Virus record (IMG/VR): IMGVR_UViG_3300043391_000853
Coordinates: 85,818-149,817 of that record
Source: a virus
Taxonomy: Duplodnaviria; Caudoviricetes
Reading direction: 5' to 3' (one strand)
DNA length: 64,000 bases
A program made the translations under genes and the position numbers. Positions 52,403 to 64,000 of the stretch are shown here, in pieces. Every line of letters starts with the position of its first letter. Within the stretch, counting starts at the first letter, position 1. The notes beneath the pieces were generated by a model. The model was not told the DNA's origin, ran no database searches, and saw only the letters and a list, made by a program, of their open reading frames with translations.

Positions 52403-54661
52403 TTATAAATCCATGCCGTCACCTCTGCTCATATTGATGGATAATTCTGGAGACTTACGCTTAAGGAAGATTATAAGATCTCCAATATTCTTCAAGACGT
52501 TCGTTACCAGCTCTACCAGCTCAGGCAAATCTCCTCTACCGTACATCTCCTTAAACTTGTCTGTTTCCCAATGCAATAAAAACAGAATTCTGCCAAGTCG
52601 ATCCATAGCCTCGACCATAGACGGCAAATACTCGGATACCTTGTCGCCTACCGACACATACTTAGCCAAAGCTCCAATCATCTGCGTGTCGAAGATCTCT
52701 TTCTGTCCGTTCTGAGCCATGCGTACAGCGTCGTTAACATATTTGGGGTCGACTCCCTTAATTTCAGGCATCGTACCCAAGTCTTGACGAGTCGGGTTTC
52801 CTGTATAGCTATCCATGGTAGGTAGCGAGTTTTCTTGCCCTATACCTGCACTGGTGGACTGTCCAAACTCGTTAGTGTACGGCTGCTCCTCAAAGGGTTG
52901 AGGATATATGTCTCCGGTATAAGCCAATTTAACGTGACCTTTTTTTGAGAAGCCGGGGACAAGGCTATCGATGAGTGATGCCCCTTCTTTTTCGTCTAGC
53001 CCGATATCCGTAACCATCGCAATCTTGGCTTGAAGAGGGTCGTCGTATCTCTTCTTTGCTCCGTCTATATCAACGAAGTACTCACTACCGTTGGTGTGTA
53101 CAGTCATTGGGAAAATATTCTTATCTCTCAACATCCCGTGCAAGGTGCTTGGATACCCTGGTTCGCCTTTCACGAGTCTTTCTTTTTCCTCTTCAGCGTC
53201 GCGCTTCCGCTTGTCTACGTCTTCCTTCTCTTGTCTTGTAGACTTCGGGGAATTAAACGGATATAAAGGCATTTCGCAACGAAGATGAGACGCTGGAGAA
53301 ATCTTTAGTAGTTTATACCCGGCAGGTACATAAATCATCTTGTCCTTGTACTCAAGACGATCGCCCTGCTTCTTGGTCATCACCAGAATGACTTCCTGCA
53401 TTTTTTTAGGGTGATCGTAAAAGTTGCCTCTAGGTAGATCATGCACGCTTCCTGGCCTATCCCACTTACCTCCCATGTCACCTCTATCTTTCCAGTTGGC
53501 TTCAGTATAGGGCTCTACACTAATCCTACGAATACCTGAAGCATCCTTAAAATTGGCATTGATCCTAAATGGCTGCGTAGCTTTTAAGTTTTCATTGATC
53601 AATATGTACGTATTAGTGTACCCAGGCTTACCTTCGGCGGCATCTACCATCATCTTGTGGATGGTGGAGTAATCTTGTACCTTAATCTGGTCTTTAACAA
53701 AAACACCTTTATGGTCTTTGATGTAAGTTGTGCCGTCCTTAGAGTCGAGGTCGACAACTAGAGTGTCGTCTGTTGCAAAATCTTGCTGCAATTGCTTCGG
53801 TCTTACGAGCAATAGACCGTAGCGCAATCCTCCTAATCTCGTCACATAAGAATAGAAGCCTGACTCAGCAGGATTTATAAATTTCTTGAGATAGTCTACA
53901 GCACCAAAAGTCGACTTCTGGTCTGGTGCTCGATCGTCTACGATTACATAGCCTTGAGTTAGTAATGTTTCTTTGTCAGATTGGTTAAGCTTTTTGGCTT
54001 CTTCCTTGTCTGAGGTTTTCACTACCTTGACTAGATTTATCTTTTTTGTGGCTTTATCGGACTTGCGATACTTATCCCCGTCTTCAAGAGTAATGGCCTC
54101 GGCCACTTTTTCCATGGGGTAGAAACGTAGAACGGACTCGCAAAATTCTGAGTTTTTTTCAAGTAGGTCTGTAAAAGCCTGCTTTGTTACGTTGTCTGAT
54201 TCTTTGACGTAATCAATCACCGAGGCTATCGCATACCTTCCTGTTCTAGGAGGTACACTCATTTGCCGGTAATCTCCCTGGGTAGCATCCCGTAAAATAT
54301 CTGTTCTGCTTTCTTTGGAGTTTTCACCCAAACCTAAGAGTTCATCTTTAATAAACATCTCAGCAAAATCCTCGTTAAGAGGGTAAAACTGTTCGTTGTT
54401 CTTACTATAGAGCAAGTCTAGGTTTTTAACTTTACCGTTAATAAAAAAAGCAGGAACAAAGAGAATTTGTCCGCTCCTGGACCTAAAACCAAACACACCC
54501 AGAGCTTTCGTATTATCCTCATTCTTTTTTACAATTTCAAACCCTACCAGATAAGGAATTAAGTTTTTTAAAGTGTCCTGTAGTCGCTGATAAGCCAACT
54601 GAAAGAACGCTCCTTCAATTTGGTCGTCTGCCGCTTGTTTGGGTAAGAATGTATTGCGCAT
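52403..54661 (-). CDS. Large hypothetical head-module protein
   Basis: 752 aa, starts FLPKQAADD; also KQA, KVA, KIA, KLA sites; own promoter. Confidence 0.55.
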   Translation of the reverse strand: MRNTFLPKQAADDQIEGAFFQLAYQRLQDTLKNLIPYLVGFEIVKKNEDNTKALGVFGFRSRSGQILFVPAFFINGKVKNLDLLYSKNNEQFYPLNEDFAEMFIKDELLGLGENSKESRTDILRDATQGDYRQMSVPPRTGRYAIASVIDYVKESDNVTKQAFTDLLEKNSEFCESVLRFYPMEKVAEAITLEDGDKYRKSDKATKKINLVKVVKTSDKEEAKKLNQSDKETLLTQGYVIVDDRAPDQKSTFGAVDYLKKFINPAESGFYSYVTRLGGLRYGLLLVRPKQLQQDFATDDTLVVDLDSKDGTTYIKDHKGVFVKDQIKVQDYSTIHKMMVDAAEGKPGYTNTYILINENLKATQPFRINANFKDASGIRRISVEPYTEANWKDRGDMGGKWDRPGSVHDLPRGNFYDHPKKMQEVILVMTKKQGDRLEYKDKMIYVPAGYKLLKISPASHLRCEMPLYPFNSPKSTRQEKEDVDKRKRDAEEEKERLVKGEPGYPSTLHGMLRDKNIFPMTVHTNGSEYFVDIDGAKKRYDDPLQAKIAMVTDIGLDEKEGASLIDSLVPGFSKKGHVKLAYTGDIYPQPFEEQPYTNEFGQSTSAGIGQENSLPTMDSYTGNPTRQDLGTMPEIKGVDPKYVNDAVRMAQNGQKEIFDTQMIGALAKYVSVGDKVSEYLPSMVEAMDRLGRILFLLHWETDKFKEMYGRGDLPELVELVTNVLKNIGDLIIFLKRKSPELSINMSRGDGMDL

Positions 54662-54684
54662 AATATTTATCTGCTATTTACTTC

Positions 54685-54713
54685 ATTTTATAAATTTTTT
54701 TCTTGTATATCAA
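54685..54713 (-). promoter_or_regulatory. Sigma70-like promoter
   Basis: TTGATA-N17-TAAAAT. Confidence 0.7.
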
Positions 54714-54726
54714 GAACCATCTCAGA

Positions 54727-56577
54727 TTAACTCTTTTCTCCGAAGCCTACACCGTAGGCTAGCCCTGGGATAGGGCTTGGTCCCTTTACATCTGAGGTCG
54801 CGCCTTTGTTAACCATATTTACAAACCTCTTGGCTAAATTGGTGCTGTTTAGTACATGCATCCAATCATCGTGATGTTCAGGAATGTCTACCAACCTAAC
54901 CATCACAGGCTCGAAGTTGGGAGGGTTATCGTGAACCAGTATCGACTCTATTCCATGTTCTTTCAGCTCATTTATAACTGCCGAGGTCACTTTCGTACCT
55001 ATTGTATAGTGCAGCTCTGTACGCTCCAGGTACTTCCCGTAAGCCAAGTCTAGGCGTAACTCCTTTGCTGCAGCTCTTGGGGTGTAATCCTTCTCTATAG
55101 CAGAGTATGACACTATTTGGTCGTGTGTATAATCTCCTAGACCTTCAGGGTCAGTAATTTTGACGTGATCTATTGCAGCTTTAGCGATAAGTTCAAAATT
55201 TCTTCTATTCACAGGAAGACCACTGTCGTCGAAGGCTTTTTTCATCGCCTGCATATAGTACTTCCTACCTTCTCCGATTCCTTTATATTTAACTACTTCT
55301 CTCGGATCCACCAAACCAGAACTAAGAGTCTGTCCTTGTTCGACCCTATCGCCTAGTTTCACGCCAGGTTCTTGCTCAATACCGATGTAGTGCTCTGTGT
55401 TGTTTACGGAGATGAAGTGTCCTCCTGCAGAGGCAGGCTCTAACTTTGTTATAAATCCGTCCTCCTGAGCTAGAGGGGCTCTACCTATAAAGGTTTTCGG
55501 TATGTTCGCCAGCTGATTAATCAGCTTGAATCCTTGCTGTCCTCCTAATGATGTTGCTGCTCCGCCTGAGTGTCTAGCCTTCATCGCGCTTTCCGTGAGC
55601 GGCTCTGCTACCGCTGTGCCTGCGACTAAGCCTATATAACTATCCATTGCAGCCATACCCTTTTCGCGGCGACCCACACACATCTGACAAAGACCTCCAG
55701 CATGGTGTTTCTTGTTAGACTGGCAGGTCATTGGGGACCTTATCATGATCTGCGTTATGTTTTTGCTAGCTAGATCGTTTAGCATTTTAGCAGAAACTTC
55801 GTTGTTCCTGTTGTAGCCTGCAACTGCTTTAGCCAGGAACGCCCCAATAGACTCTCTGTCTTTCACATCCAAGGTTATCCCGTTGAGTGTTTCGCAGTCG
55901 GATTCTATAATCTGCAGAGGCATCAAAGCTCTGGCGAACTGCTTCGACCCATAACCTCCTTGAGCTACCGATATTTTTTTAAGTACTTCTCCTGACCTGG
56001 TACCGAAAGAGGTGGCTAAGTACTCAGGCAACGTTAGACCTTCGGCATAAGAACTCTTGATGGGGATATCCATTTTAGGTTTCCCTTCCGCATCAACCAC
56101 AAATCCCTGAGTAGTTATAGTTCCTCTATATTGTGCAGGTGTCCCTCTAGAGCCGGCTAGAATAATTTTGGCTAGCGATTTATTTTGCTTTAACCCCTCA
56201 CCTAGAATTTCTTTCTCTATCAAAGACATCATGTCGTTGTAGTTATCGAAAATCTTTTTATCTTTAACTCCTTGAGTGTCGCTACCCTTTTCGACGGTTA
56301 CTTTAAAGCTCTCAAATTTATTCCAGAGCTTATCTTTATCTATAGGAGAAACCAGATCCTTGAGCGTTAGTGACGTCCCCTGTCTTGTAGCTACTTCGAA
56401 GCCTACCTTGGTGAGGTCGGATACTATCTGTGCGTAGTGCTCGGGAGCCTTCTCTGAAAGCTCAGCAAAAAGCTTGGCTATGCCCTTTTTGTCTAGAGTG
56501 ACATCTTCAACCAAAGCATGAAATTGTACGGGAGTAAAAAACTTTAATAACACCCGACCTACGGTGGTTATAGCCAT
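54727..56577 (-). CDS. rpoC: Phage multisubunit RNA polymerase, beta' C-terminal half
   Basis: TTVGR, AGSRG, PIKSSYAEGLTLPEY, bridge helix GTRSG...GGY, DCET and RSPMTC...LCQMC Zn site, trigger loop AEPLTESAMKARHSGG. Confidence 0.92.
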   Translation of the reverse strand: MAITTVGRVLLKFFTPVQFHALVEDVTLDKKGIAKLFAELSEKAPEHYAQIVSDLTKVGFEVATRQGTSLTLKDLVSPIDKDKLWNKFESFKVTVEKGSDTQGVKDKKIFDNYNDMMSLIEKEILGEGLKQNKSLAKIILAGSRGTPAQYRGTITTQGFVVDAEGKPKMDIPIKSSYAEGLTLPEYLATSFGTRSGEVLKKISVAQGGYGSKQFARALMPLQIIESDCETLNGITLDVKDRESIGAFLAKAVAGYNRNNEVSAKMLNDLASKNITQIMIRSPMTCQSNKKHHAGGLCQMCVGRREKGMAAMDSYIGLVAGTAVAEPLTESAMKARHSGGAATSLGGQQGFKLINQLANIPKTFIGRAPLAQEDGFITKLEPASAGGHFISVNNTEHYIGIEQEPGVKLGDRVEQGQTLSSGLVDPREVVKYKGIGEGRKYYMQAMKKAFDDSGLPVNRRNFELIAKAAIDHVKITDPEGLGDYTHDQIVSYSAIEKDYTPRAAAKELRLDLAYGKYLERTELHYTIGTKVTSAVINELKEHGIESILVHDNPPNFEPVMVRLVDIPEHHDDWMHVLNSTNLAKRFVNMVNKGATSDVKGPSPIPGLAYGVGFGEKS

Positions 56578-56978
56578 TATTTTTTAAGTTTTTTGATTAA
56601 GAGCTCGTAAAATGATGCCTGCTTTTGGTTTTGAGCATTATCACCAAACGACTGGGTCGTGGCCATATTCATATTCTTGTCCTTGGACCTTCCTGGAAGG
56701 AGCACATCCTCCTTTTCTTCTTCCAGCTTATTCATCACATCAAGCTCTTTAAACGCTCCTTCCATTATATCGCCTTCGGTATTGCTCTGCGTTTGCTGCT
56801 TCGAAGTGGACATGGTGACATCAGTGTCTTCCAGGTTTTCTTCTTCTCCGTTGTTTACGGTTGCTGTATCATTTAGATCTTGAGCAATCTTTCTTTTGAT
56901 GTAGCAGGCCAAGTCGTAGCTTTTCTCTCCTTTTTCAAAAGAGTTTAAATAAGCTGCAAGTTTTGTGAACTGTCCCAT
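56577..56978 (-). CDS. Acidic hypothetical protein with KxA motifs
   Basis: TKLAA, RKIAQ, QKQAS; TAATG coupling to the beta' C-half gene. Confidence 0.6.
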   Translation of the reverse strand: MGQFTKLAAYLNSFEKGEKSYDLACYIKRKIAQDLNDTATVNNGEEENLEDTDVTMSTSKQQTQSNTEGDIMEGAFKELDVMNKLEEEKEDVLLPGRSKDKNMNMATTQSFGDNAQNQKQASFYELLIKKLKK

Positions 56979-56990
56979 ATTATGTATAAA

Positions 56991-57932
56991 TTAGCCTCCC
57001 ATAGGGGCAGAGTATATACCTCCTCCGCCCATCATTCCTTGTTGGGCTTCCTGTGCTTGTTGCTGCTGTTCCTGTGTCTGCTTTTGTTGTTCGGACTCGG
57101 CTTTTGCTTTGGTCTGATCCATCTTTTGCTTATGCGTGTCTGCAAGCTGTTTGACCTTGAGTAGTGAGGCGGTAGCTGATCCTTTACCTATAAGATCTAA
57201 CAACTCTCTAACAGACAATGTCACCTTGACGTTATCTAGTTCGTTTTTGGCTTCTATAGCTGAAGCCTCTGCTTGCTGGGCGTCTTCGGCTGCCGGATCT
57301 TGTGGAGGGGTAGGCATTTCTTCTTGTCCTCCTAGCGCACCTAATCCTTGCTGCTGTGCAGCGGCGTACAGATCTTCGTCTGCTGCCTGGGCTTCCATTC
57401 CAGGTGGTTGTTGCGGTCCTCCCATACCCTGTTGGCCTCCCATGCTTTGTTGTAGCTCCTGTAACAGCTCGGACAGATGTTGCTCTCTCTGCTCTGTGGG
57501 CATGTTTTGTAATTTCGCTAGAATTGGAGCAATCTGTTGCTGAGCCTCAGGAGGCATCTGTTGTACAGCTGCCATTATTTCAGCCAGCAGTCCGTCGCTT
57601 GCGTCCCCTTGCCCTTGCTGTGGAGGCGCTCCTTGCGGCGGGGCTTGCTGTTGTGCAGCTTGAGGATCCTGGGGCGGCGCTCCTTGAGGAGGTGCCTGCT
57701 GTGGAGGGGCTCCTTGAGGAGGTGCTTGCTGTTGTGCAGCCTGGGGATCCTGTGGAGGAGGTGCTTGTTGCTGTTGTGCAGCTTGTGGATCCTGGGGAGG
57801 CGCTCCTTGCGGCGGGGCTTGCTGTTGAGCAACTGCAGGGTTAGGAACAAATGCACGCTTTTCTTTGGCTGTTTTGTTCAGGCCTCTGTTTGTTATTTTG
57901 TCGTAGTCTGCAAGCAAGTCAGCGATTTTCAT
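56991..57932 (-). CDS. Gln/Pro-rich low-complexity protein with N-terminal KxA cluster
   Basis: MKIAD...NKTAKEKRAF followed by QQAPPQGAPPQDPQAA repeats. Confidence 0.7.
   Translation of the reverse strand: MKIADLLADYDKITNRGLNKTAKEKRAFVPNPAVAQQQAPPQGAPPQDPQAAQQQQAPPPQDPQAAQQQAPPQGAPPQQAPPQGAPPQDPQAAQQQAPPQGAPPQQGQGDASDGLLAEIMAAVQQMPPEAQQQIAPILAKLQNMPTEQREQHLSELLQELQQSMGGQQGMGGPQQPPGMEAQAADEDLYAAAQQQGLGALGGQEEMPTPPQDPAAEDAQQAEASAIEAKNELDNVKVTLSVRELLDLIGKGSATASLLKVKQLADTHKQKMDQTKAKAESEQQKQTQEQQQQAQEAQQGMMGGGGIYSAPMGG
57615..57830. repeat. Coding tandem repeats (QQAPPQGAPPQDPQAA)
   Basis: Recurrent ggatcctgggg, gctccttg and gcttgctgttgtgcagc units. Confidence 0.85.
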
Positions 57933-58135
57933 GTGGCGTTTTCCAGTTCTATTATTTTAAAAATATTTGCTTCTAGTTCTTTTTTAATCTCCGGCAATCT
58001 GCCTTGCTGAGAGGTTTTGCTTAATTCATGCAGGCCTTTTTCTAATTGGAGTATTTCATGCAAATATGTACGCATCTCAGCAATTTTTTCATCCTCGCTG
58101 AGATGTGTCCATATATTTTCATCAAGCATAACCAA
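57929..58135 (-). CDS. Small helical hypothetical protein
   Basis: About 66-68 aa; ATGA overlap with the next gene. Confidence 0.55.
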   Translation of the reverse strand: MVMLDENIWTHLSEDEKIAEMRTYLHEILQLEKGLHELSKTSQQGRLPEIKKELEANIFKIIELENAT

Positions 58136-58194
58136 AAAAAGGGTAGAGATAAAGACTATTGTTGCGTGTGTTGGCGATGCGCTGCAACTTACAG

Positions 58195-61188
58195 TTATAC
58201 GTCTACTCGGTCTCCGACCGCAAGCTTTCCCGATAAAAAATCTTTGACTACTTCTTGAGCAGAAGAATACTTGATAGGTTTATTTTTATTGTCTTCAAAG
58301 CTGGCCGCGAACAGTCCCGTGGCTGCCTCGTTAGATGGAGTGAATATCGGGCTAAACGTCCTGTGGTAAATTAAGTTTTTACTCGGGAGCAGTTTTTCCT
58401 TCACTTCTTCTTTGGCTTCGTCGGAAGCAGGAAGCTGTACATTCAATTGGTCTCCGTCGTTATCTGCGCCGTAACCCTTGAAAACTAGGGGGTTCATTTT
58501 GATAGAGAAGTCCTTGGGATCAGGATTCATCTTTAAATACATCCCCTGAAAGTTGTACTTGGATAACTGCGGATCTCTAGTGACGATACCTGGGCGATCG
58601 GCCATCTCTTCATTTAGGGCCGTAAGAGCTAGTGGATGCTTGTGTTCAAGGTACTCCTTGGCTTTTGTTGCAGGTACACCCTGACGTACAAGTCTCCGTA
58701 CTATGAACGGTGAAAAAATACTCCAGGCTACCTGTTGAGGTATACTGGACTCATTTAGACCTAGTTGAGAGTCAGGCAGCAGCACAGCTCTTCCGACGAG
58801 GTCGATAGGTTTGTTGACCACCTTTGCCTGAAACATTGACTCTTTCGCTGATCCTCCTTGAAGTCCTAGAGCTGATGCCAGAAGTCCCTTGTATCCCTTC
58901 TCTACACTCTTCTGTGCCACAGGTTCGCCGAGACCATAAACAGCCTTAACACCATTATATATCTGTTTTCTGGCGGTGTTAAGAAGCTCCGGGTCCATGT
59001 CTTTGGAATCCTTTGCCTCTCCATAAGACTTATTAACCAGCATTAAATCTTTGTATAATTCGTTAACGTCAGCCGTGAGGGCCTGGTCTCCCTGGATCAT
59101 CACCGGCCTGTACTGTGCCGGAATAATTGGAACTTTAGATAAAAGCATGTCCTCAGGCTTTAGCCCGTTATGCTTTAGCATGGTTAGAAAGCTTAGGGCT
59201 TTAATTGCGTCATCCCTACCAGTCTTTCTTTTTGATTTTGCTGTGGCTGTAAGCTCTGCAATCTTTTTATCTAGATCAATATTTTTTAATTCTTTCTCAA
59301 GCCTTCCTGAAGCTATCGCCTCCTCATAAGCGACTTTTGTCATCTTTAAAAGCTTCCTTAAATGATCTTCAGCCATCGGATTGGCTATTCTGTGATGTAA
59401 GGCTATATGGTTGAAACTGTCACCGTGTATTCCTACAAGGGTAGGGTCAAATAGACCTCCGTCCTCTGCAATGATCTCATCCTTCTTTAATTTGTATGTG
59501 AGAGGTTCTTTAATCTCGCCATTGGACATGGCTACAACATCTTTGTCTGTCTGGGGCAGTACATGGAATTTTGAGCCTTCCTGTACAACATTAACTCCGG
59601 AGCCTTTAAGATGACCTATGAACTTATCAAAAATAAATGGTACCTTTGGTGTGGGGGGTGTGTGTCCTAATTTTACAGCTGTCCAGTATTCGTCATTCTT
59701 TGTTGCCCTGATCGTGGCTATATCTCTCAGTACGGCCTTGGCGTCATTTGACAAGGCTACCGTGGTAGCAAGATTCCCTATCCTTTTAGCTTTTTCGTGC
59801 GAGCCTGCCTTGGACGGCTGCATATTAATATCGTAGGATGTTGCAGCTGATCTGGCGGATATTTTGTCTTCGGCAATGTGGTGCAGTCTGTTGAAGTAGA
59901 GCGGGCCTGTAAGCACGTCAATGTGCCTGCCTGAAGTCGGATCGTACAGCTTCTCGGTTTCACTAACTCCATGTTTTTCTAGCACGTCGATCACCTTTTG
60001 AATAGATGAGCCTTCTGTGAAGGCTGTGCTGTGTATGGTTGTACCTAGCTTTTCAGCGAGCTTGCCTAGACCTATGGTACTGACCATGCCAGGGGCTACA
60101 CGAGATGTAATACTCATAGTATTGAGAAGTACATCTACAGGTTTACCGGAAGCGTCTTGAGGCATCTGTGTGTCTGGAACTATACGCACAACTCCCTTTG
60201 CACCGAAGGGCATATTGAGCTTATCTGCATTACTCATAGGTCTGCGCGTTTTGATCGTTACCGCAAGCATCTTGCCTCCTGCGGATACGTCTGTAACTTC
60301 GCCGTCGTACTCATACTCCCATGGAACGGATATGTCGGTATAGGCGTTACGGATGACCTTCGCCAGCTTGCCTAGCTGAATATCTAGAGACTTTAATGTT
60401 TTTGGCTGCATCGCCAGTATCACAGGATCGCCATGCTTGAGTATCGTGCCTTTCTTGACTACCCCGTTGCTGGAGATGTTGCCGAGTTGGTCGTTGTAGT
60501 ACTTGTTAGGGAACAGTGAGATAAACTTATCCTTGTCGGTCTCTACGCCTCTGCCTGTCTCCATACGTACAGGAATGATCTGCTCTCCTTCAAGCTTCTT
60601 GGCTGCCGTCTCGGAAATGACTAGAGCATCTTCAAAGTTCAGAGAACGATAGGGCATGATGGCTGTCTTGAGATTCATTCCCAAGGCCAATGTACCTTCA
60701 GAGTCTGAGTGATTCGAAGTGGCCAGTAGCCCTCCTTCCTTCACTTTGTCTCCGACCTTTACAGTAGACGTATGGTGCAAGAAGCTGTCTCGACCTATGA
60801 TGTAATTATTATATTTGTCGTGAAGATGGTCGTTACCTTCCTTGTCCTTGATAGTGATGTGGTCTTCGCTGATACCAGAGACTGTCCCGGCTAGTCTGGA
60901 GTTTACAGTAACAAGCTTGCCGAATTGTTGATTAAAGCTTTCTTTTGCTCCTTTGGCTGCCGCCTGGATCAATGGAGCTTCTCTATTTACAAGGGTCATT
61001 GCCTGGAGTGAGGCCTTGTCTCCGATAAGTACACGGGCACCTGACACAGAACTGAGGTTAGGTATGAGGTTGGTGACAGGGCTGAAAAACTGGGAAGGAT
61101 CCAGGATGGTATACTTGGCCTTTAGCGAGCTCGGTACCTTTTTAAGCTTTCCTTCAACAAGTGCGAACTTTTGTTTATTTATCGACAT
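58195..61188 (-). CDS. rpoBC: Phage multisubunit RNA polymerase: beta C-terminal half fused to beta' N-terminal half
   Basis: Beta motifs NLIP, LALGMN...NFEDA, ADK...GAKGVV, VDVLLN...SR, LHHIAEDKISAR; then beta' motifs SNGEIKEP, GGLFD, PIIPAQYRP, GRAV, TRDPQL, GADNDGDQ. Confidence 0.93.
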   Translation of the reverse strand: MSINKQKFALVEGKLKKVPSSLKAKYTILDPSQFFSPVTNLIPNLSSVSGARVLIGDKASLQAMTLVNREAPLIQAAAKGAKESFNQQFGKLVTVNSRLAGTVSGISEDHITIKDKEGNDHLHDKYNNYIIGRDSFLHHTSTVKVGDKVKEGGLLATSNHSDSEGTLALGMNLKTAIMPYRSLNFEDALVISETAAKKLEGEQIIPVRMETGRGVETDKDKFISLFPNKYYNDQLGNISSNGVVKKGTILKHGDPVILAMQPKTLKSLDIQLGKLAKVIRNAYTDISVPWEYEYDGEVTDVSAGGKMLAVTIKTRRPMSNADKLNMPFGAKGVVRIVPDTQMPQDASGKPVDVLLNTMSITSRVAPGMVSTIGLGKLAEKLGTTIHSTAFTEGSSIQKVIDVLEKHGVSETEKLYDPTSGRHIDVLTGPLYFNRLHHIAEDKISARSAATSYDINMQPSKAGSHEKAKRIGNLATTVALSNDAKAVLRDIATIRATKNDEYWTAVKLGHTPPTPKVPFIFDKFIGHLKGSGVNVVQEGSKFHVLPQTDKDVVAMSNGEIKEPLTYKLKKDEIIAEDGGLFDPTLVGIHGDSFNHIALHHRIANPMAEDHLRKLLKMTKVAYEEAIASGRLEKELKNIDLDKKIAELTATAKSKRKTGRDDAIKALSFLTMLKHNGLKPEDMLLSKVPIIPAQYRPVMIQGDQALTADVNELYKDLMLVNKSYGEAKDSKDMDPELLNTARKQIYNGVKAVYGLGEPVAQKSVEKGYKGLLASALGLQGGSAKESMFQAKVVNKPIDLVGRAVLLPDSQLGLNESSIPQQVAWSIFSPFIVRRLVRQGVPATKAKEYLEHKHPLALTALNEEMADRPGIVTRDPQLSKYNFQGMYLKMNPDPKDFSIKMNPLVFKGYGADNDGDQLNVQLPASDEAKEEVKEKLLPSKNLIYHRTFSPIFTPSNEAATGLFAASFEDNKNKPIKYSSAQEVVKDFLSGKLAVGDRVDV

Positions 61189-61194
61189 ATACAG

Positions 61195-61223
61195 ATGCTA
61201 CATTACACAGGTTAAAATATCAA
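61195..61223 (-). promoter_or_regulatory. Sigma70-like promoter of the RNAP gene, probably leaderless
   Basis: TTGATA-N17-TAGCAT; ATG 6 nt after the -10. Confidence 0.6.
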
Positions 61224-61237
61224 TAGTATGAAAAGGT

Positions 61238-61549
61238 TTAGGTGTCTATAGAGTCTTTCTGCTGCAGCTCATCGCTAAAACGTAGTCCGCACCTCCATAG
61301 CACCTCCGCCATATCATCCGAGATCTCGTCAACTATCTCGTTTTGAATTTCCCATATAGCGCAATGTATCAGTTCGTCGATGAGGGTAGCCAGCAACTTC
61401 TTGCCACTCTCTCTAGAATCTATATAAACTGTTTTATTCTTGGTTTTGGGATGGTCGCACAACCCTCTAACCGATCTCAGTTTCTTGACGCTGAAGTTGT
61501 ACCTACGGCCTCTCATTTTAATTGTTTTTATTTTCTCTATAGGTCTCAT
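61238..61549 (-). CDS. Small zincin-like (SprT/ImmA-type) protein with DExxH in place of HExxH
   Basis: GLCDHP...VYID...LLATLIDELIHC. Start moved to ATG 61549 because the TTG at 61585 is the -35 box. Confidence 0.55.
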   Translation of the reverse strand: MRPIEKIKTIKMRGRRYNFSVKKLRSVRGLCDHPKTKNKTVYIDSRESGKKLLATLIDELIHCAIWEIQNEIVDEISDDMAEVLWRCGLRFSDELQQKDSIDT

Positions 61550-61556
61550 AGCTACA

Positions 61557-61585
61557 AGTGTAGCAGATCTACAGGCTGTAATCAA
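61557..61585 (-). promoter_or_regulatory. Sigma70-like promoter, probably leaderless
   Basis: TTGATT-N17-TACACT with TG extension; ATG 7 nt downstream. Confidence 0.6.
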
Positions 61586-61709
61586 CCCCGCCCACGGATG
61601 AGGGTACCCAACCCCAGGTAATTAATTCGATAGATAGAGAATATACCCCCCTATTGAATGCTAACGTACATACGACTCATAGGTCAGCATACATAGACAC
61701 CTAGAGCAC

Positions 61710-62972
61710 ATGATCTCCCCTCTAACCCTACTAAACGACTACGAAGAAAACGAAGCTGAGCGGCTGGAAGCCTACAGGCACCAAGTGGCCAGTATCTTTG
61801 AAGACAAGGAGGACGAGTTCGATTGCAGATTCGAGCGTAGCTTAAACATACCTAAACCATCTGAGGCTGCTGTAGACAAATTCAGAGAAACCCACTTCCT
61901 CCTGTCCTCTTTCGGCTCGCTAGAGCGTAGAGCTGAAGGAGTGCAACATAAAGGAGACATCAACTGGTGCAGCATAGACGACTACATAGACAACTGGCAT
62001 CTGCTCTCTAAAGAAGATCAGTTGAGTCTTCGCTCTCTCTGCCTATCTGACCTAAAAGGTAACGCCAACCGGTATGGTGTAAAAAAGCTAAACCTAGAAT
62101 CTCACCTACTACTACACATAGGCTGTGATACTACAAACATCGTCAACAACGGTAGAGATGCTGTAGCCAGCAACTTGAGAAATCCTAAAACCAGAGACTA
62201 TTCAAAGTTCTGCCTTGAGGATCGCACTGTAGATCCCAGAACCTGTCGCAGGGTCTATTCAAAATTCCACAAAGACCACGATCTAGGTCTATTGTTCAAA
62301 TCTGGCTTTGTCTGCTATCAAGCTGTGGTGGTTGCTGACGAGTCCTACAAGACTCTAGGATCATCTCCAGAAGAGGCAAAAGAGCGTATCCACAAGTTCT
62401 TCAAAGAAAACAGTACGGAGTTCAGCCGCTTGAGCAACAAAAAGAAAAAGATCTATTCCTATCTCTACAGCAACGAAATCAGCGTAGACTCTATTCTATC
62501 TGGGAAGTACCGTCCTCATACTCACATCATCTTCTTTCTTCCCAAAGCTATGCTTGTGTCTGAGCAGCAGGAGAGTGTCGAGAGACTGGAGGAAAGGTTC
62601 AACTCTCGCTTCTCTGATAGGGTCATGCGTGTGCAAAGAAGCGAATACGACAGCAGGATGCTTCCTACCATGGTGGACTCTTTCGAAGACATAGCAAACA
62701 GCGTGAACTATCTCTTCAGGGCCTACAGCCTGTCAGATCAATATATCCGGGAGGCTAGATCCACAAACATACGCGAGCTCAACAAGGCTACTGTAGAATG
62801 CTACAGAAATCTCATATGGCTGTTCAAACCCACAGAAAAAGGAGAGGGCATTCACCATTCAAGACACAGTCGTATTCCCAAGACTGGTCAAGGGGATAAC
62901 TACATACATCCGCTATTGCAAAAGAATAAAAAAAGATCTACAATGAAAAAGACTAGCTGTATTCAATCTTAA
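61710..62972 (+). CDS. HUH-superfamily, rolling-circle Rep-like protein
   Basis: YLYSNEISV...YRPHTHIIFF resembles Rep_1 motif II; VNYLFRA is a candidate catalytic-Tyr motif III. Confidence 0.6.
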   Translation: MISPLTLLNDYEENEAERLEAYRHQVASIFEDKEDEFDCRFERSLNIPKPSEAAVDKFRETHFLLSSFGSLERRAEGVQHKGDINWCSIDDYIDNWHLLSKEDQLSLRSLCLSDLKGNANRYGVKKLNLESHLLLHIGCDTTNIVNNGRDAVASNLRNPKTRDYSKFCLEDRTVDPRTCRRVYSKFHKDHDLGLLFKSGFVCYQAVVVADESYKTLGSSPEEAKERIHKFFKENSTEFSRLSNKKKKIYSYLYSNEISVDSILSGKYRPHTHIIFFLPKAMLVSEQQESVERLEERFNSRFSDRVMRVQRSEYDSRMLPTMVDSFEDIANSVNYLFRAYSLSDQYIREARSTNIRELNKATVECYRNLIWLFKPTEKGEGIHHSRHSRIPKTGQGDNYIHPLLQKNKKRSTMKKTSCIQS

Positions 62973-62976
62973 AGAT

Positions 62977-64000
62977 ATGCCAAAACGTATGGTTCAGAAC
63001 AATCAAGTGGAAGAAATCCTGGAGAGCCTTCAAAAAAAGGCCATCTTCGGCATGAAGAGAAGAGCTGCAGCCCGGAACGCTGACCCTGAAGGTGTACAGC
63101 AAGAGATGGCTGCCATGCGGGCCAGAGGCATGAACCCTCAGCAAATGAACCAAGAGTTCGAGCAGAGGCATCTTCAACGCGAAGAGGAGAGAAAAACCTT
63201 CGATCGGGACATGAGCAACATGCAGGCTCAGAGGAACAATCCACTCTATTCAATGAGTCCTCAGGGGAGAAATGCTGCACTAGGTCGGTCGGTAGATCAA
63301 CAGCTCCTGCAGGAGAAGGTAGACGCTCAAAATCAACAGGTACAAAACATACAAAAGGAACGAGCTCTTGCACAGCAGATGAGAGCTCAGGGAAACAACT
63401 CCTTTGCCAATACAGTAGACCGAAACATGGGCGTCTCTAACGAGCAGATTGGTAGACAGCAGCCTCAAAGCCAACAGCAGGTCGCACAAGCAACCAACCA
63501 GCGTACACAGGACTACAACCAGGCGAAGGCTGACCTGGTGAAGATGAATCCTAATCTTGGTGTTGCAGGTCATGAAGATAACACCAAGTTCATAGCCAGT
63601 CTCAAATCCACTTACGGCGACAACTATCGAGAGCATCTTCAGCAAAATCCTCAGCAGCTGATGCAGCACTATACTTCGATGCAGCCTCAGGCTAATCCTC
63701 AGCAGACTGCATCGAATAATCCACCGGCAGCAGCACCAACGACTGCTCCAGGTCAACCTGTGGCGGCAACAAATCTTCCCCAGCCTGCACCTCAACCACA
63801 GAATCCTCTACTTAACGGACCTGCAACAAACAACACATTCGCAGGCAAAACATCTCTTAGTTTAGGTGGTTCTACTCCAACCCCAACACCTACTCCGCCT
63901 CCAGCTCCTGGGGCTGCGCCAGCTCAACCTACAGCACAAACGGGAGCTCCTGGAGAAAAGAAAGCTTCTCTCTTAAAAACCTCAGAAGAGGTGTATCTCA
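62977..64000 (+). CDS. Partial Gln/Pro-rich protein with KxA motifs (runs off right edge; missing from ORF track)
   Basis: Manual translation MPKRMVQNNQVEEILESLQKKAIFG...APGEKKASLLKTSEEVYL, open to the window end. Confidence 0.75.
   Translation, partial: MPKRMVQNNQVEEILESLQKKAIFGMKRRAAARNADPEGVQQEMAAMRARGMNPQQMNQEFEQRHLQREEERKTFDRDMSNMQAQRNNPLYSMSPQGRNAALGRSVDQQLLQEKVDAQNQQVQNIQKERALAQQMRAQGNNSFANTVDRNMGVSNEQIGRQQPQSQQQVAQATNQRTQDYNQAKADLVKMNPNLGVAGHEDNTKFIASLKSTYGDNYREHLQQNPQQLMQHYTSMQPQANPQQTASNNPPAAAPTTAPGQPVAATNLPQPAPQPQNPLLNGPATNNTFAGKTSLSLGGSTPTPTPTPPPAPGAAPAQPTAQTGAPGEKKASLLKTSEEVYL

Follow-up and report, generated by a model that had tools for sequence, protein, structure and literature searches.

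A bacterial-type RNA polymerase predicted in four pieces, with both catalytic barrels on one chain, in a tailed phage from freshwater

The stretch of DNA analysed here, referred to as the window, comprises 64,000 nucleotides of a tailed phage (Duplodnaviria; Caudoviricetes) and corresponds to positions 85,818 to 149,817 of the IMG/VR virus record IMGVR_UViG_3300043391_000853, that is, to the last 64 kb of a linear record of 149,817 bp, with window position 64000 at the record end. Two genes on its minus strand resemble parts of beta and beta', two subunits found in multisubunit RNA polymerases. These are an open reading frame (ORF) of 997 amino acids (aa) at 58195-61188, in which the C-terminal part of beta and the N-terminal part of beta', designated beta(C) and beta'(N), lie on one chain, and an ORF of 616 aa at 54727..56577, which carries the C-terminal part of beta', designated beta'(C). 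The locus raises the question of whether such a rearranged set of fragments can belong to a functional enzyme, where its N-terminal part of beta, beta(N), is encoded, and to which known polymerases it is related. The explanation considered best, with a probability of roughly 0.85, is a working four-piece multisubunit RNA polymerase of bacterial type, with two of its four core genes in the window.

The fusion chain and the separate C-terminal part of beta'

An alignment to the Rpb2 and Rpb1 domain models, proposed as a check in the original prediction made from the sequence, placed the Pfam domains Rpb2_6 (residues 136-460, E 4e-44), Rpb1_1 (654-729) and Rpb1_2 (865-931) on the 997-aa ORF and Rpb1_5 on the 616-aa ORF. 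In the search of PDB sequences, residues 10-533 of the fusion chain corresponded to bacterial beta 644-1182 (7l7b_C, E 2.5e-41) and residues 620-997 to bacterial beta' (E ~1e-34), and the NCBIfam models were covered at positions 545-1092 of 1096 for rpoB (PRK00405) and 143-532 for rpoC_TIGR. The beta(C) part, residues 1 to ~539 (59572..61188, minus strand), covers Escherichia coli beta from ~627 up to its C-terminal end; it contains the double-psi barrel together with the NFED motif and the loop K..GAKG. The beta'(N) part, residues ~540-997 plus the stop codon (58195..59571, minus strand), is equivalent to E. coli beta' ~20-550 and includes the clamp helices and the catalytic barrel, without the four-Cys zinc-binding domain. 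The junction has no linker, as the end of beta (...GSGVNVVQEGS) is followed directly by beta' from about residue 20 (KFHVLPQTDKDVVAMSNGEI), and ~33 residues of beta', including all four Cys of the zinc-binding domain, are deleted, as in every family member examined. The Pfam and PDB results and the junction alignment agree with the earlier claim that a beta(C)-beta'(N) fusion places both barrels on one chain.

The 616-aa ORF begins with MAITTVGR, is equivalent to E. coli beta' from ~569, and carries the bridge helix, the trigger loop (...MKARH) and the second, four-Cys zinc site; it matched beta' chains of PDB (E 1e-33) and rpoC_TIGR positions 549-1062. In the Salmonella numbering, which equals that of E. 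coli, residue 23 of the fusion chain aligns with beta 649 and residue 960 with beta' 511, and residue 4 of beta'(C) aligns with E. coli beta' 572. The predicted boundaries, with a start near beta ~630, a stop near beta' ~550 and a resumption at TTVGR, were in this way confirmed, as was the separate gene for beta'(C), whose cut lies ~13 residues ahead of that between cyanobacterial gamma and beta' (residue 27 of beta'(C) equals cyanobacterial beta' residue 14).

The catalytic loop reads GADNDGD (residues 907-913; 58450..58470, minus strand), with the Asp triad intact and the Asn ahead of the triad replaced by Gly. This replacement, together with the motifs PFGAKG and TRDPQLS, is confined to relatives with at least 66% identity, and the rest of the family shows N[AL]DxDGD, RHGNKG and NRAPTLH, which are near canonical. 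Besides the Asp triad, the two genes have kept NFED, the beta lysines (K..GAKG), the trigger-loop His and the second zinc site. The AlphaFold2 model of the whole 997-aa chain had a mean predicted local distance difference test score (pLDDT) of 87.8 and a predicted template modelling score (pTM) of 0.78, and its closest structures were bacterial beta chains (E 5e-37). The NCBIfam equivalog cut-offs were not reached (165 bits against 801 for rpoB; 150-185 bits against 963 for rpoC). A comparison with the copies of a 99%-identical phage gave 73 synonymous and 6 non-synonymous codon differences in the fusion gene, and 35 and 5 in the beta'(C) gene; purifying selection is strong on both. There is one catalytic beta' copy per genome.

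A promoter directly upstream had been taken as support for the start of the fusion ORF. The site in question, which is sigma-70-like (61223-61195), scores 9 of 12, and 14 such sites were found against 9.5 +/- 3.7 in shuffled sequences, so that no enrichment is apparent. Instead, the start draws its support from over 100 homologues, 995-999 aa long, in which the chain begins at this same position. The architecture is shared by more than 120 clusters at 90% identity, with chains of 995-999 aa that are 52-99% identical and lie on contigs of 170-220 kb.

The N-terminal part of beta and other polymerase components

No beta(N) was detected in the window or in the whole 149.8-kb record by tblastn and phmmer with the N-termini of the proteins of Salmonella phage Arash and Vibrio phage D69, with Pfam Rpb2_3 or with the relatives' two beta(N) genes described below. 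It is not found here because the record, which CheckV estimates to be 76% complete, is truncated. The 99%-identical phage, assembled on a 190,016-bp ENA contig, encodes it in two genes, one of 220 aa that lies 8.5 kb and one of 230 aa that lies 14.7 kb upstream of the fusion gene. In that contig, beta-N2 lies at 63746-64438 (plus strand), beta-N1 at 69947-70609 (minus), the fusion gene at 79134-82127 (plus) and beta'(C) at 83745-85595 (plus), so the four genes are spread over ~22 kb and both strands. By this layout the two genes would fall at window positions ~69.7-70.4 kb and 75.9-76.6 kb, past the record end. The claim that beta(N) is absent thus holds for the window and the record and fails for this type of phage, in which it is present as two scattered genes, and the suggested search of the genome for beta(N) and alpha retrieved neither from the record itself, beta(N) being found in relatives.

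Pfam Rpb2_3 was found in an ORF of ~230 aa located 12.7-16.5 kb upstream of the fusion gene in all five IMG/VR relatives searched (78-79% identity; four of the five are 94-100% complete). This ORF, beta-N2, aligns to residues 240-469 of Arash gp206 (E 4e-23), and the first 224 residues of gp206 match an ORF of ~220 aa, beta-N1, on the opposite strand ~8 kb upstream (aligned part, gp206 36-143). The 99%-identical phage and six further relatives have both genes, and every near-complete relative examined has all four pieces. In terms of E. coli beta, beta-N1 is equivalent to ~25-340 and beta-N2 to ~340-620, the fork domain included. For a profile containing both pieces, hhalign gave a probability of 99.7% (E 3e-25) in the alignment to bacterial beta, over its N-terminal 620 residues. 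On the NCBIfam rpoB model, beta-N1 covers positions 59-209, beta-N2 314-472 and the fusion chain 545-1092, and the four pieces together cover the rpoB and rpoC models in order.

Other candidates were discarded. A 478-aa ORF downstream of the portal gene, considered as beta(N), is a DUF1501 protein. Split inteins at the cut sites were rejected, as the termini align within ~10 residues of the neighbouring piece and leave no space for intein halves. An intein at the fission site in relatives was likewise rejected, as the insertions of P0147, P0157, P0204, P0230 and P0262 are placed within the fork domain (beta-N2 residues ~125-180), at least 50 residues ahead of the cut.

A gene with a SET domain directly follows beta-N1 in the 99%-identical phage (L009:413-814, minus strand; beta-N1 at L009:814-1476), with overlapping stop and start codons, and such a gene also lies just downstream of beta-N1 in the relative G001 (L024:10919-11326, minus strand). 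In P0131, a distant family member, SET, DUF5661 and 2H phosphoesterase domains are fused to the N-terminus of the polymerase chain. The neighbourhood in one lineage and the fusion in another suggest a functional link between methyltransferase and polymerase.

Searches for alpha (PF01000) and omega (PF01192) gave no Pfam matches in genomes G000-G004, which include four relatives 94-100% complete, and the controls were positive in 14 of 14 genomes; the earlier remark that neither subunit is visible therefore stands. A sigma factor of 182 aa of the extracytoplasmic function (ECF) type, with regions 2 and 4, is encoded outside the window at 56965-57513 of this record (minus strand). Its best NCBIfam matches are ECF families of Bacteroidota type, a weak hint of a possible Bacteroidota host. 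A helicase of the SNF2 type adjoins the polymerase genes both in the relative with a 55% identical fusion protein (L035:7500-9290, minus strand) and in Arash (gp217; L002:18732-20150, plus strand), a neighbour that recalls the helicase linked to phiKZ-type polymerases. Homologues of gp217 were sought in this record by tblastn, with no match at E up to 0.01.

The fusion family and its relation to known polymerases

The best 150 representatives at 50% identity all carry beta(C) and beta'(N) on one chain. Relatives at 35-40% identity are mostly ~1450 aa or longer, and the alignment with the 997-aa protein starts at their residue ~455-500, so that beta(N) is still part of these chains, as it is of Arash gp206 (1525 aa) and the Vibrio D69 protein (1527 aa). 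In a tree of 47 sequences, the 997-aa type formed one clade, with a support of 100 in the Shimodaira-Hasegawa-like approximate likelihood ratio test (SH-aLRT), nested among the ~1450-aa forms. The chain has therefore lost beta(N) by gene fission, a derived state, and chains of a second clade (P0243, P0244, P0259) start independently at the same site. In a second tree, phages and 18 bacteria of about nine phyla fell on the two sides of one long branch (SH-aLRT 100), and the phage proteins stood outside all the bacterial clades sampled rather than nesting within a cellular clade. The trees cover about nine bacterial phyla, without archaea, mReC or phiKZ-type sequences, and their root is not known.

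Diversity was observed within the family. P0260 is a single chain of 2032 aa with all of beta and beta' and near-canonical motifs, P0243 ends in a phage lysozyme and LysM, P0259 ends in an AAA domain, and P0131 begins with the SET and 2H domains mentioned above. Many family chains are lengthened by inteins, which are frequent (P0080, P0102, P0147, P0157, P0204, P0230, P0262) and carry LAGLIDADG or intein-splicing Pfam domains in three of these seven. In a metagenome-assembled genome of Vicinamibacterales (L116, 1-7188), the rpoC frame is open for ~1000 codons upstream, across the rpoB region read in another frame; this is probably an effect of high GC content and not a fusion.

The nearest relatives are the fusion proteins of the Arash and Vibrio D69 type, and the beta split seen here is derived inside that family. 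Arash gp206 and gp216 (OQ632216; PMC10585845) and the proteins of Vibrio phages D69, D148 and D181 share with the window protein the seamless beta-beta'(N) junction and the deletion that removes the beta' zinc-binding domain. They also have a separate beta'(C) gene of ~606-616 aa starting at the position equivalent to TTVGR and a homologous gene for a large structural protein near beta'(C), and in both trees they group with the window protein against bacteria (SH-aLRT 100). Their chains, of 1525-1527 aa and 31-32% identical to the window protein, differ in including beta(N), the window chain starting at Arash residue 480, in active-site motifs closer to canonical, and in a gene position after the portal gene. 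In the description of Arash, these proteins are simply labelled beta and beta' and the fusion is not described (PMC10585845); no paper describing the fusion layout was found in the literature searched.

The RpoBC proteins of Helicobacter and Wolbachia (NCBIfam PRK09603, PRK14844), which gave the best-scoring NCBIfam models, similarly join the C-terminus of beta to the N-terminus of beta'. However, they consist of full-length beta and beta' within a cellular alpha2-beta-beta'-omega enzyme, whereas the window protein scored 196 bits against a cut-off of 5372 and its fusion is trimmed at both ends into separate genes. In cyanobacteria and plastids, beta' is divided into gamma and beta' (rpoC1/rpoC2) at nearly the same place, ~13 residues after the cut seen here (TIGR02388 positions 6-345), but gamma is free and not joined to beta and the rest of the enzyme is canonical, whereas the gamma equivalent of the window is fused to beta. 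The beta cut found here lies ~30 residues from the start of the model for B' in the archaeal division of B'' and B', an approximate distance extrapolated from TIGR03670 and PRK08565 positions. Polymerases of the phiKZ/AR9 type are also composed of several beta and beta' pieces without alpha or omega and are carried in the virion (PMC7598289, PMC7824862), but phiKZ-type phages have two polymerase sets, no sigma and no fusion (PMC7824862), in contrast to the one set, ECF sigma and fusion here. Their chains were not among the best 60 PDB sequence matches, all of which were bacterial-type beta, beta' or gamma.

It is an evenly balanced proposition that the two-barrel chain forms the constant core of a very large phage polymerase family (at least 150 clusters at 50% identity), bacterial in type and without alpha or omega, in which the remaining parts have been cut repeatedly at permissive sites that archaea and cyanobacteria also use.

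Proposed function, alternative explanations and gene neighbourhood

The enzyme would consist of four polypeptides, beta-N1 (~220 aa), beta-N2 (230 aa), the 997-aa chain with both active-centre double-psi barrels, and beta'(C) (616 aa), which carries the bridge helix as well as the trigger loop. By analogy with the split beta and beta' of archaea, cyanobacteria and phiKZ-like phages, the pieces could assemble non-covalently, and the covalent link between beta and beta' may do the work of the alpha dimer in assembly. Guidance to phage promoters would come from the phage sigma, and the enzyme may be packaged in the virion, where it could start early transcription. This last step is slightly favoured. 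In the Arash particle proteome, gp206 gave the most spectra of any protein, and gp216, a sigma factor (gp10) and the helicase gp217, which is of the SNF2 type by Pfam, were also detected (PMC10585845). The virion-carried reading is more likely because of these spectra, the homologue of the structural protein gp218 beside beta'(C), the position of the genes in a block of virion genes and the lysozyme-LysM variant.

One way to account for both the ORF start and the absence of beta(N) would be an assembly artefact, with a chimeric join at ~61.2-61.7 kb. Such a join could be suspected, as the record is an incomplete metagenomic contig and gene direction switches at 61.6-61.7 kb, but the probability left to it is negligible. 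The gene order at the junction (a 420-aa divergent gene, a 103-aa ORF and the 997-aa ORF) recurs in the 190-kb ENA contig and in a Logan contig of another run, and the three assemblies are colinear with 97.5% nucleotide identity across window positions 54000-63382. Contigs of independent freshwater studies span 61.2-61.7 kb with no reported joints, so that the mis-assembly against which the original prediction had warned is not seen, and over 100 homologues agree in length and start. A genuine set of genes could still be a decaying remnant, broken up and inactive, with the fusion ORF kept for another, for example structural, role. Consistent with decay, beta is in pieces, the genes lie dispersed over both strands, positions at which the E. 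coli polymerase contacts the incoming nucleotide have changed residues, and the beta' zinc-binding domain is gone. We nevertheless consider a remnant very improbable in view of the strong purifying selection (73 to 6 and 35 to 5 codon differences), the retention of the Asp triad, NFED, the beta lysines, the trigger-loop His and the second zinc site, and the conservation of the four pieces in every near-complete relative examined; the loss of the zinc domain is family-wide and includes members with canonical active-site motifs.

Two further alternatives accept a working enzyme or real polymerase genes. The four-piece enzyme might be made after infection for middle and late genes and left out of the particle, with the host polymerase reading the early genes. 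This has a substantial but smaller chance than packaging: a phage sigma could equally redirect the host polymerase, clearly non-structural enzymes are also present in the Arash particle preparation (PMC10585845), and no second, non-virion polymerase set exists, unlike in phiKZ-type phages. Conversely, the Arash polymerase chain had the most spectra of any particle protein (PMC10585845), the genes have virion genes as neighbours here and follow immediately on the portal gene in Arash and D69, and the relative P0243 has lysozyme and LysM fused to the chain. The other alternative, proposed in the original prediction, places the genes in mReC, the deep-branching lineage of Weinheimer and Aylward, which would make them an ancient sister group to every bacterial polymerase. 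The mReC phages are likewise metagenomic tailed phages with bacterial-like beta and beta' outside cellular clades (PMC7481178), a long branch with full support divides the family studied here from the 18 bacteria of about nine phyla, and the best PHROG matches are families of ~1200 positions. However, mReC contigs carry separate genes for beta (~1000-1400 aa) and beta' (~900-1200 aa), and their selection required at least 800 aa for each and NADxDGD in beta' (PMC7481178), a motif that the 997-aa protein does not have. The fusion layout with GADNDGD therefore lends the assignment no support, in a comparison of gene layout and motif made by description, with mReC outside the trees. The long branch would be equally expected from fast evolution after capture from a bacterium, the root not being known, and membership of the mReC lineage is on balance unlikely.

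Several points weigh against the proposed working, virion-carried enzyme. The two beta-N genes are known only from a 99%-identical relative, the record itself being without them, and alpha or omega analogues could be too divergent for Pfam. The conserved proteins of 66, 313 and 133 aa encoded beside the polymerase genes have no explanation in the model, and the trees sample about nine bacterial phyla, without the archaeal, mReC and phiKZ-type enzymes. The unusual residues near the active centre (Gly for Asn, PFGAKG, TRDPQLS) may mean altered or reduced activity, and the activity and assembly of the family enzymes are predictions from sequence. As for packaging, the Arash proteome lists 116 proteins, including ribonucleotide reductases, and its authors note that abundant intracellular proteins may carry over (PMC10585845); with metabolic enzymes in the preparation, virion packaging can therefore be called no more than probable.

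The polymerase genes head a co-directional block of ~61 kb that includes tail proteins and the prohead protease; the minus strand carries almost all genes up to 61.6 kb, and at 61.6-61.7 kb the direction of the genes switches. The block opens, just upstream of the fusion gene, with a small conserved ORF (61238..61585, minus strand) of 103 aa (ATG at 61549) or 115 aa (TTG at 61585). Its 103-aa form (61238-61549) is called as a gene in two independent contigs and is 51% identical to L036_101 of the relative with 67% identity in the fusion protein; it has no Pfam or PHROG match, and compared with this relative the segment LIDE..HCA.WE..NE.VD.ISDD.A..LWRCGLRF is invariant. The divergently transcribed 420-aa gene (61710-62972, plus strand) has a weak Pfam match, below the cut-off, to the replication-associated ORF2/G2P domain (E 4.5e-4).

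The fusion and beta'(C) genes are separated by 1.6 kb with three ORFs, all on the minus strand, which hold the same positions in relatives with fusion proteins 67% and 55% identical. As low-complexity proteins conserved in position and without likeness to beta(N), they were rejected as pieces of it. The protein of 66 aa (ATG) or 68 aa (TTG; 57929..58135) has positional homologues in the 67% and 55% relatives (E 1e-17 and 3e-8) and no match in the Pfam search. The Gln/Pro-rich, low-complexity protein of 313 aa (56991..57932) has a conserved C-terminal segment and an internal tandem repeat (57679-57831) and shows 29 synonymous and 2 non-synonymous codon differences from the 99% relative, indicating purifying selection; it gave no Pfam or PHROG match, and all scores of the atlas search were below 0.8. 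The contigs of other runs break at the tandem repeat (periods 15 and 42; window 57645-57831), which is likely an assembly weak point and is a candidate site of length variation, as the relatives range over 203-313 aa. The acidic, low-complexity protein of 133 aa (56577..56978), conserved in position, is 38% identical to L036_115 (E 5e-18) and has no Pfam or PHROG match.

Next downstream of beta'(C) is a 752-aa gene (52403..54661, minus strand), a homologue of Arash gp218 and Vibrio D69_0266. Its product matches the N-terminal part of gp218 (blastp E 6e-11), a structural protein according to the annotation of the Arash record, and weakly D69_0266, and has 43-63% identical homologues at the same position in relatives. 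DNA of the phage was found in freshwater, lake and estuary metagenomes of nine studies; no RNA data are listed among the runs with this DNA, one wastewater run labelled RNA-Seq being probably DNA.

In the assembly of bacterial RNA polymerase, the alpha dimer is thought to be needed as the platform on which beta and beta' come together. The family described here apparently dispenses with alpha and omega and joins both catalytic barrels covalently, and the remaining parts of beta and beta', cut off, re-cut or re-fused across lineages, provide a natural map of tolerated breaks. The family also supplies candidates for a minimal bacterial-type polymerase expressible from few genes. In public annotation, the 997-aa chain and the beta fragments of 220 and 230 aa usually appear as 'hypothetical' or 'biotin carboxyl carrier protein'. 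If the two-barrel chain is indeed the constant core of the family, the covalent link would stand in for the alpha-dimer platform, and nature would provide in this family a range of minimal and re-partitioned polymerases, in part virion-delivered. Bench tests of these questions are feasible, because Salmonella phage Arash and Vibrio phages D69, D148 and D181 are available in culture as members of the family. If the enzyme is delivered in the virion with the phage sigma, these phages would achieve host-independent transcription by a route unlike those of the N4/T7-type and phiKZ-type phages.

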